Below, in pieces: positions 47,334 through 55,429 of a stretch of DNA of 64,000 nucleotides. Each line of letters starts with the position of its first letter. Within the stretch, counting starts at the first letter, position 1. Origin of the DNA: Escherichia coli (GTDB taxonomy: Bacteria > Pseudomonadota > Gammaproteobacteria > Enterobacterales > Enterobacteriaceae). Below the pieces are notes generated by a model. That model did not search any database and was not told where the DNA came from. It was given only the letters and a program-made list of their open reading frames with translations. The translations under genes were made by a program, and so were the position numbers. The DNA is taken from NCBI RefSeq assembly GCF_003334255.1, contig NZ_QOWU01000010.1; one strand, written 5' to 3'.

Positions 47334-50129
<2,796 letters not shown>

Positions 50130-50240
50130 TCCTCTCTTTATCTGCTATACCTGGTAGTGTCCTTTCCTCAAGGTTAATGATAAAAAATGTGGCACACAGG
50201 CGGTGCCTTTTATTTTTACTGAAGTTCACAGGAGGTTTAT

Positions 50241-51008
50241 GTGTTTAATTCTGACAACCTGAGACTCGACGGAAAATGCGCCATCATCACAGGTGCGGGT
50301 GCAGGTATTGGTAAAGAAATCGCCATTACATTCGCGACAGCTGGCGCATCTGTGGTGGTCAGTGATATTAACGCCGACGCAGCTAACCATGTTGTAGACG
50401 AAATTCAACAACTGGGTGGTCAGGCATTTGCCTGCCGTTGTGATATTACTTCCGAACAGGAACTCTCTGCACTGGCAGACTTTGCTATCAGTAAGCTGGG
50501 TAAAGTTGATATTCTGGTTAACAACGCCGGTGGCGGTGGACCTAAACCGTTTGATATGCCAATGGCGGATTTTCGCCGTGCTTATGAACTGAATGTGTTT
50601 TCTTTTTTCCATCTGTCACAACTTGTTGCGCCAGAAATGGAAAAAAATGGCGGTGGCGTTATTCTGACCATCACTTCTATGGCGGCAGAAAATAAAAATA
50701 TAAACATGACTTCCTATGCATCATCTAAAGCTGCGGCCAGTCATCTGGTCAGAAATATGGCGTTTGACCTGGGTGAAAAAAATATTCGGGTAAATGGCAT
50801 TGCGCCGGGGGCAATATTAACCGATGCCCTGAAATCCGTTATTACACCAGAAATTGAACAAAAAATGTTACAGCACACGCCGATCAGACGTCTGGGCCAA
50901 CCGCAAGATATTGCTAACGCAGCGCTGTTCCTTTGCTCGCCTGCTGCGAGCTGGGTAAGCGGACAAATTCTCACCGTCTCCGGTGGTGGGGTACAGGAGC
51001 TCAATTAA
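50241..51008 (+). CDS. hdhA: 7-alpha-hydroxysteroid dehydrogenase (SDR family), 255 aa
   Basis: SDR motifs TGAGAGIG and YASSKAA in translation. Confidence 0.95.
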   Translation: MFNSDNLRLDGKCAIITGAGAGIGKEIAITFATAGASVVVSDINADAANHVVDEIQQLGGQAFACRCDITSEQELSALADFAISKLGKVDILVNNAGGGGPKPFDMPMADFRRAYELNVFSFFHLSQLVAPEMEKNGGGVILTITSMAAENKNINMTSYASSKAAASHLVRNMAFDLGEKNIRVNGIAPGAILTDALKSVITPEIEQKMLQHTPIRRLGQPQDIANAALFLCSPAASWVSGQILTVSGGGVQELN

Positions 51009-51020
51009 TACACTAACGGA

Positions 51021-51051
51021 CCGGTAAACAACCGTGCGTGTTGTTTACCGG
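51021..51051. other. Perfect 12-bp inverted repeat with 7-bp spacer immediately after hdhA (stem-loop / possible protein site)
   Basis: CCGGTAAACAAC-CGTGCGT-GTTGTTTACCGG; no U-tract follows. Confidence 0.5.
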
Positions 51052-51228
51052 GATAAACTCATCAACGTCTCTGCTAAATAACTGGCAGCCAAATCACGGC
51101 TATTGGTTAACCAATTTCAGAGTGAAAAGTATACGAATAGAGTGTGCCTTCGCACTATTCAACAGCAATGATAGGCGCTCACCTGACAACGCGGTAAACT
51201 AGTTATTCACGCTAACTATAATGGTTTA

Positions 51229-51819
51229 ATGATGGATAACATGCAGACTGAAGCACAACCGACACGGACCCGGATCCTCAATGCTGCCAGAGAGATTTTT
51301 TCAGAAAATGGATTTCACAGTGCCTCGATGAAAGCCATCTGTAAATCTTGCGCCATTAGTCCCGGGACGCTCTATCACCATTTCATCTCCAAAGAAGCCT
51401 TGATTCAGGCGATTATCTTACAGGACCAGGAGAGGGCGCTGGCCCGTTTCCGGGAACCGATTGAAGGGATTCATTTCGTTGACTATATGGTCGAGTCCAT
51501 TGTCTCTCTCACCCATGAAGCCTTTGGACAACGGGCGCTGGTGGTTGAAATTATGGCGGAAGGGATGCGTAACCCACAGGTCGCCGCCATGCTTAAAAAT
51601 AAGCATATGACGATCACGGAATTTGTTGCCCAGCGGATGCGTGATGCCCAGCAAAAAGGCGAGATAAGCCCAGACATCAACACGGCAATGACTTCACGTT
51701 TACTGCTGGATCTGACCTACGGTGTACTGGCCGATATCGAAGCGGAAGACCTGGCGCGTGAAGCGTCGTTTGCTCAGGGATTACGCGCGATGATTGGCGG
51801 TATCTTAACCGCATCCTGA
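51229..51819 (+). CDS. uidR: UidR (GusR), TetR-family repressor of the glucuronide operon, 196 aa
   Basis: TetR HTH (RILNAAREIFSENGFHSASMKAICKSCAISPGTLYHHF). Confidence 0.95.
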   Translation: MMDNMQTEAQPTRTRILNAAREIFSENGFHSASMKAICKSCAISPGTLYHHFISKEALIQAIILQDQERALARFREPIEGIHFVDYMVESIVSLTHEAFGQRALVVEIMAEGMRNPQVAAMLKNKHMTITEFVAQRMRDAQQKGEISPDINTAMTSRLLLDLTYGVLADIEAEDLAREASFAQGLRAMIGGILTAS

Positions 51820-52158
51820 TTCTCTCTCTTTTTCGGCGGGCTGGTGATAACTGTGCCCGCGTTTCATATCGTAATTTCTCTGTGCAAAAATTATCCTTCC
51901 CGGCTTCGGAGAATTCCCCCCAAAATATTCACTGTAGCCATATGTCATGAGAGTTTATCGTTCCCAATACGCTCGAACGAACGTTCGGTTGCTTATTTTA
52001 TGGCTTCTGTCAACGCTGTTTTAAAGATTAATGCGATCTATATCACGCTGTGGGTATTGCAGTTTTTGGTTTTTTGATCGCGGTGTCAGTTCTTTTTATT
52101 TCCATTTCTCTTCCATGGGTTTCTCACAGATAACTGTGTGCAACACAGAATTGGTTAA

Positions 52159-55391
<3,233 letters not shown>

Positions 55392-55429
55392 TATTCAATA
55401 AAAATAATCAGAACATCAAAGGTGCAACT

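Follow-up and report, generated by a model that had tools for sequence, protein, structure and literature searches.

A stem-loop without a U-tract downstream of hdhA in Escherichia coli as a probable protective 3′ element of the hdhA mRNA

The hypothesis behind 3′-terminal protective stem-loops that lack a U-tract is reportedly that of Peters et al. (2012). Stem-loops of this U-less kind mark where Rho-dependent transcripts end and are barriers to PNPase and RNase II, with termination itself occurring farther downstream (Dar & Sorek 2018, NAR 46:6797). Stops at which the same two exonucleases cease trimming have been tabulated from a re-analysis of SEnd-seq libraries of wild type, Δpnp, Δrnb and Δrnr strains (Liu 2023, Adv Sci 10:2301459). 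Here we analysed a perfect inverted repeat located directly after hdhA (7-alpha-hydroxysteroid dehydrogenase) in a 64,000-nucleotide stretch of E. coli DNA, referred to as the window, whose positions are used throughout together with those of the MG1655 chromosome. The best reading of the hairpin is that of a U-less protective 3′ stem-loop or exoRNase stop site belonging to the class of Dar & Sorek (2018), the testable features of which it displays. We put the probability of this reading as a whole at roughly 0.7, namely that the hairpin is the last structured element of the hdhA mRNA and that it defines and protects the 3′ end against processive 3′→5′ exonucleases. The hairpin is in this respect already known, since published tables give its exact 3′ end and the dependence of that end on PNPase and RNase II, and the principle is established; the present analysis adds strand-specific covariation evidence and allele frequencies.

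The inverted repeat and its gene context

The repeat spans positions 51021-51051 and reads CCGGTAAACAAC-CGTGCGT-GTTGTTTACCGG, with two arms of 12 nt that are 100% complementary and 7 nt between them. It is separated from the hdhA stop codon by a gap of exactly 12 nt (51009-51020), as the initial annotation had described, and the sequence bears out that description in full. Six of the 12 perfect base pairs in the stem are G-C pairs. Folded as RNA, either strand of the hairpin reaches -17.1 kcal/mol (z = -4 to -5, one value being -4.05), and 0 of 200 dinucleotide shuffles folded as well. Perfect inverted repeats with arms of at least 12 and loops of 3-12 occur on average 0.03 times in shuffled 64-kb windows and five times in the real one, mostly beside gene ends. 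The hairpin is a non-chance repeat, yet it is one of a class that is common in real E. coli DNA and, given five such loci in the window, it is not individually exceptional. The DNA around it is base-identical to E. coli K-12 MG1655, in which the hairpin lies on the minus strand at NC_000913.3 1,697,260-1,697,230; the two coordinate systems are related by NC_000913.3 coordinate (minus strand) = 1,748,281 - window position, which was verified base by base.

The tail that follows the stem on the + strand (GATAAACTCATCAAC) has a d'Aubenton-Carafa-type T-score of 0.37, compared to a median of 0.43 and a 95th percentile of 2.09 for the window background, while the - strand tail scores 1.34, and a T-tract after the hairpin is present on neither strand. 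The sequence GAUAAACUCAUCAAC after the stem does not contain the 7-8-nt U-tract of canonical terminators, a single U is found within the first 8 nt of the tail GAUAAACUC, and the U-tract is also absent after the stem in the other alleles and species. A consensus promoter and terminator scan of the window made no call at the hairpin, so that, with no U-tract behind the stem, the earlier judgement that this is not a classical intrinsic terminator stands. An Rfam scan at a permissive E-value returned no match at the hairpin, and two chance snoRNA-like matches were returned elsewhere in hdhA. A 49-nt query centred on the hairpin was found at exactly one place per genome in 5414 of the 5426 complete E. 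coli genomes, which rules out a dispersed-repeat family; within the window there are no other exact copies of the arms and only 2-mismatch chance matches. A mechanically predicted ORF at 51038-51202 (54 aa), with a GTG start inside the hairpin, has no support.

The genes and transcript features around the hairpin are collected in Table 1. Liu 2023 treats malI-hdhA-uidR (1,696,415-1,699,241) as one 'complex' operon (Adv Sci 10:2301459). A row of the same data set at 1,698,087 (-) is, on our reading of the column layout of the table, the transcription start of hdhA and thus marks a promoter of its own; the first nucleotides listed for it are A-C-A, and the window also reads ACA at 50194. The reported start lies inside the terminator hairpin of malI (GGCACACAGGCGGTGCC followed by a T-run, 50191-50207), and the terminator of one gene would therefore overlap the start of the next. 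On the other side, the reported uidR promoter (51107-51135) is downstream of the hairpin, which is at least 56 nt upstream of its -35 hexamer. A perfect TATAAT is also present 6 nt before the annotated uidR ATG (51217-51231); its use would imply a leaderless mRNA, and the published promoter is farther upstream. HdhA orthologues with more than 90% identity are confined to Escherichia, and the next-best relatives (~69%) come from Rheinheimera, Stenotrophomonas, Pseudomonas, Shewanella and others, a distribution which suggests that hdhA was horizontally acquired by the Escherichia lineage.

Table 1. Features of the malI-hdhA-uidR region in window coordinates.
Feature	Position	Strand	Source or remark
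malI	49101-50129	+	ORF list / annotation
hdhA transcription start (our reading of the table)	50194	+	Liu 2023: 1,698,087 (-), hdhA<->malI spacer, RppH-processed TSS table
hdhA CDS (7-alpha-hydroxysteroid dehydrogenase), stop TAA 51006-51008	50241..51008	+	ORF list; RefSeq b1619, 1,697,273-1,698,040 (-)
5′ arm of stem, CCGGTAAACAAC	51021..51032	+	sequence and fold
Loop, CGTGCGT	51033..51039	+	sequence and length vary among alleles
3′ arm of stem, GTTGTTTACCGG	51040..51051	+	sequence and fold
Steady-state wild-type hdhA mRNA 3′ ends (stem +4, stem +6)	51055..51057	+	Adams 2021 Term-seq; Liu 2023
3′ end in RNase II deletion mutant, stem +9; start of final 5-nt RNase II nibble	51060	+	Liu 2023 Table S4
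Reported constitutive sigma-70 uidR promoter, TTAACC-17-TATACG	51107..51135	+	Shimada 2014 genomic SELEX table
uidR	51229-51819	+	ORF list / annotation
uidA	52210-54021	+	ORF list / annotation

Published 3′ ends and exonuclease dependence

Term-seq places a 'primary' hdhA end at 1,697,224 (51057, stem +6) in LB at OD 2.0 (Adams 2021, eLife 10:e62438, Supplementary file 1) and at 1,697,226 (51055, stem +4) in M63 at OD 0.4 (Adams 2021), and the hdhA 3′ end is absent from the same listing for LB at OD 0.4. The initial annotation had proposed a Term-seq check and had named a simple terminated 3′ end together with a lack of regulator binding as evidence against its suggestions; an hdhA 3′ end just after the stem is what these data contain, and this corresponds to the first half of that statement. 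The position 1,697,226 (-) is listed in Liu 2023 as both a 3′ pnp stop and a 3′ rnb stop. The proportion of ends there, which is the number of reads ending at a nucleotide divided by the coverage at that nucleotide and which comes from single replicates of the exoRNase mutant libraries, is 0.386 in wild type versus 0.105 in Δpnp (sheet 'PNPase ends in WT', FDR 0.011) and 0.386 in wild type versus 0 in Δrnb (sheet 'RNase II ends in WT', FDR 1.5e-4). About 39% (38.6%) of log-phase coverage thus ends exactly at 1,697,226, and as it is just this share of the coverage that ends at the site, read-through exists. Table S4 of Liu 2023 pairs the stop at 1,697,226 with a start at 1,697,221, a distance of 5 nt, in a row whose format matches that of the RNase II sheet. 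The wild-type end at stem +4 to +6 is depleted in Δpnp and absent in Δrnb, in which the end is found at stem +9. Among the functions offered for the repeat by the initial annotation, those of an RNase-processing structure or an mRNA stabiliser are the ones that fit ends located 4-6 nt after the stem at a stop of both PNPase and RNase II.

Liu 2023 lists no RNase E-dependent end at the hairpin and no Δpnp-enriched precursor end in the hdhA-uidR spacer. The sole Δpnp-enriched 3′ end in the malI-hdhA-uidR unit is 1,696,805 (51476), which together with a Δpnp-enriched 5′ end at 1,697,032 (51249) bounds a 227-nt decay fragment inside uidR that is normally degraded by PNPase. A further RNase II stop is listed at 1,696,416 (51865), after the hairpin of uidR. 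With respect to Rho, Adams 2021 has no termination region that covers the hdhA hairpin or directly follows it, the nearest peak being 1,696,336 (~51945), which belongs to a strong Rho region in the uidR-uidA spacer (Rho score 5.8, p = 1e-12). The windows flanking 1,697,041 have a bicyclomycin Rho score of 2.06, flagged as not significant (Adams 2021, eLife 10:e62438), a hint that transcription reads through from hdhA into uidR to some degree in a bicyclomycin-sensitive manner. At 1,697,041 (51240), 11 nt inside the uidR ORF, there is a Term-seq 3′ end in LB at OD 0.4 and in M63 (Rho score 2.06, intrinsic terminator score 2.05). The spacer after the hairpin is weakly structured (z = -0.9), and the C/G ratio downstream of the hairpin is 1.2-1.5, the 77th percentile of the window.

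If the hairpin is a protective 3′ stem-loop, RNA polymerase would mostly pass it, because no U-tract follows, and transcripts would end farther 3′, either diffusely, possibly via Rho in the weakly structured spacer or early uidR, or alternatively at the terminator of uidR as part of the malI-hdhA-uidR unit. PNPase would trim these transcripts back to ~9 nt from the stem and RNase II would then remove ~5 nt more, and the outcome would be a stable monocistronic hdhA mRNA of ~860 nt accompanied by a lower level of uidR read-through message. The roadblock part of this mechanism is directly supported by the published mutant tables. Downstream termination or read-through is favoured by the missing U-tract, the unconserved tail, the PNPase dependence of the end, the operon call taken with the end fraction of 39%, the weak structure of the spacer and the Rho score of 2.06; speaking against it are the non-significance flag on that score, the position after uidR of the one Rho region called nearby, the modest downstream C/G ratio and the lack of a listed precursor end in the spacer.

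The alternative that survives best is termination in situ, in which the hairpin itself would release the transcript ~9 nt after the stem without a U-tract, perhaps with NusA/NusG, and RNase II would nibble 3-5 nt from the released end. The hairpin would then be a weak, partial Rho-independent terminator that stabilises the message too. Termination driven by the hairpin would equally place an end at stem +9, where the Δrnb end lies, this being the canonical release distance of intrinsic terminators; the hdhA end is precise in two independent data sets, a share of ~39% of coverage ending at the site fits a weak terminator, and neither the RNase E-dependent end nor a nearby Δpnp start is listed. 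Such sites may indeed be inefficient intrinsic terminators backed up by Rho (Dar & Sorek 2018). Nevertheless, we consider release at the hairpin unlikely: the tail, with its single U in the first 8 nt and its low T-score, is not conserved, being altered by an 8-bp insertion in the majority E. coli allele and unrelated in E. whittamii and in the divergent strain SCPM-O-B-8794, though the stem is kept, and the hdhA end falls 3.7-fold when PNPase is lost, an effect not expected of a site of release alone.

It is also conceivable, though in our estimation distinctly improbable, that the hairpin, instead of passively capping the 3′ end, works as a tunable, condition-dependent intercistronic valve on malI/hdhA-driven transcription reaching uidR. 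The fraction of transcripts ending at the hairpin would in that case set the dose of the UidR repressor and hence the inducibility of beta-glucuronidase, and it is relevant here that the hdhA 3′ end is called in stationary phase and in minimal medium and not in LB at OD 0.4. If true, such a valve would tie transcription related to bile acids and maltose to the use of glucuronides, the bile-acid and glucuronide traits being gut-specific and found together only in Escherichia. For glucuronidase regulation, the amount of transcription that continues into the gene of the UidR repressor is a question of modest interest.

Evolution of the helix

The K-12 type allele, which has the perfect palindrome, is present in 2228 genomes at >=99% identity to the 49-mer. 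The majority E. coli allele (574 + 2593 genomes, ~59%) has A->G at arm position 11 and a loop of either CGTACGT or CGTATGT, and its stem is followed directly by 8 inserted bp, GCGTGTGC or GCGTGAGC; the loops found within E. coli are thus CGTGCGT, CGTACGT and CGTATGT. The change at arm position 11 gives a G·U pair in the hdhA-sense RNA and a C·A mismatch in both the antisense RNA and the DNA palindrome, and the majority allele is predicted to fold at -17.1 kcal/mol as sense RNA versus -12.8 kcal/mol as antisense RNA. In a rare allele, that of OkiPb01713, arm position 1 is changed from C to T, which gives a U·G pair in the sense RNA only, and this C->T is common to OkiPb01713, E. whittamii and the divergent 'E. 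coli' SCPM-O-B-8794. The element reads (G)TCGGTAAACAAC-CGAGTGAGT-GTTGTTTACCGA(C) in E. whittamii and (G)TCGGTAAACAAT-CGAGTGAGC-ATTGTTTACCGA(C) in SCPM-O-B-8794, with loops (CGAGTGAGT and CGAGTGAGC, respectively) of 9 nt. Both have U-A in place of the outermost C-G pair and gain an extra G-C pair, and the stem is kept next to an unrelated tail; in SCPM-O-B-8794 the innermost C-G pair is replaced by U-A as well. An allele of the SCPM/whittamii type is carried by none of the RefSeq E. coli complete genomes.

In an alignment of six distinct alleles, a small sample for covariation with few substitution events, 72 of 72 cells are paired on the + strand, compared to 26-49% pairing in slid-register controls, and three cells on the - strand are C·A-mismatched. 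Arm complementarity across strains, which the initial annotation had suggested examining, is therefore complete in the sense direction. Two of the pairs are changed on both sides (C-G -> U-A), and the two one-sided changes give G·U pairs in the sense RNA only. All arm substitutions keep sense pairing while loop and tail vary, the pattern left by an RNA helix under selection, which is read in the direction of hdhA and whose function would reside in the stem alone. The spacer between hdhA and uidR (50900-51300) is unusually diverged for a core locus, as 2902 of 5417 genomes are 90-95% identical over the 401 bp, and its variation consists of two haplotype classes that differ by an 8-bp indel.

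The uid genes next to the hairpin differ among close relatives. SCPM-O-B-8794 is without uidABC (window ~52212-56815; locus L012), yet both uidR and the hdhA hairpin are kept. In E. albertii uidRABC is absent (window 51037-56880), homology ends inside the loop so that the left arm only survives, and no replacement hairpin is found within ~170 nt after hdhA. In place of uidR-uidA-uidB-uidC, E. albertii has 129 bp of unrelated sequence (L013:2297-2425), and the right junction falls at the 5′ edge of a further 12-bp inverted repeat, likewise perfect (56880-56911). With the left junction in the loop of the hdhA hairpin and the right junction at this second repeat, both ends of the deletion touch palindromes.

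This junction inside the loop, the apparent horizontal acquisition of hdhA and the ability of any stable hairpin to stall PNPase and RNase II are all in keeping with a functionless palindrome, whether due to chance or as a rearrangement relic at the edge of the uid block, at which exonucleases merely happen to stall. We regard this as very unlikely: sense pairing is held at 100% by compensatory and wobble changes next to a diverging loop and tail, 5414 of 5426 E. coli genomes carry the element, and a perfect 12-bp repeat is very improbable by chance.

Least probable of all, and not supported by the sequence comparisons, is the suggestion of the initial annotation that the repeat is a protein-binding palindrome in the uidR upstream region, i.e., double-stranded DNA bound by a dimeric regulator (UidR, for instance, or some other factor that controls uidR): the palindrome, which is perfect in K-12, lies within the hdhA-uidR spacer and has an arm 8-mer, CGGTAAAC, that is found again upstream of uidR at 51192-51199, but it is made asymmetric by a one-arm A->G in ~59% of E. 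coli genomes, its arms are spaced 7 nt apart versus 9 nt in E. whittamii and SCPM-O-B-8794, the arm changes (compensatory or G·U) are of the type that preserves RNA pairing, the reported uidR promoter begins downstream at the distance given above, E. albertii keeps the left arm alone, and the uidR-uidA spacer, the reported site of the UidR operators, contains no exact copy of an arm. These UidR/GusR operators, O1 and O2, have been reported upstream of uidA. A text search of the literature for hdhA together with uidR, which is weak negative evidence, returned no report of regulator binding in the spacer and only an RNAP (RpoD) holoenzyme SELEX list and a pan-genome paper, and a looser query for regulator binding at hdhA returned irrelevant papers only.

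Two other elements of the spacer were observed. The copy of CGGTAAAC at 51192-51199 is invariant in E. coli, E. whittamii and SCPM-O-B-8794, and may be a coincidence. An imperfect palindrome at 51136-51161 in the uidR upstream region, GAATAGAGTGTG-CCTTCG-CACTATTC, has an invariant core (GTGCCTTCGCAC) and may serve as a site for a protein instead of forming a helix in RNA; as its outer arms do not stay paired in E. whittamii, it was not counted as part of the hdhA hairpin.

Comparison with described classes

For annotation, hdhA gains an experimentally anchored 3′ boundary at window 51055-51057, which matters little beyond careful annotation. Read as a protective stem-loop, the hairpin is a clean natural case of a U-less hairpin that blocks exonucleases, its pairing preserved by compensatory substitutions and by wobble changes specific to one strand as loop and tail drift, and a perfect palindrome without a U-tract after a gene should be read first as a stabiliser of the mRNA 3′ end and not as a regulator site.

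REP/BIME elements resemble the hairpin in being extragenic palindromes able to stabilise the upstream mRNA against 3′ exonucleases. The hdhA hairpin differs from them in that it is single-copy in each genome, is unlike the REP consensus and has no match to Rfam or a repeat family. It has in common with canonical intrinsic terminators the stem length, the loop length, the folding energy, the place after the stop codon and the Δrnb end at stem +9; those terminators have a 7-8-nt U-tract and an upstream A-tract, whereas the hdhA hairpin is without both and its tail is not conserved. The likeness to the PNPase and RNase II trimming stops of Liu 2023 extends to the listing of its exact position, the 5-nt RNase II nibble and the complex operon, although the hdhA site appears there as table rows only, individually unvalidated, and the worked examples have an RNase E cut, which the hdhA site does not.

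The class of Dar & Sorek (2018) consists of Rho-dependent or processed mRNAs, and for hdhA a dependence on Rho, also suggested by the initial annotation, is putative and the downstream C enrichment weak. Unlike the members of that class, some hdhA transcripts appear to continue into uidR, and the hairpin would therefore be intercistronic as well. What the hdhA hairpin shares with the class is a stable stem-loop directly upstream of a precise steady-state 3′ end, reduced uridine after the stem (T-score 0.37) with no uridine-rich tail and no upstream A-tract, an end that depends on PNPase and RNase II, and downstream RNA that is weakly structured and has slightly more C than G.
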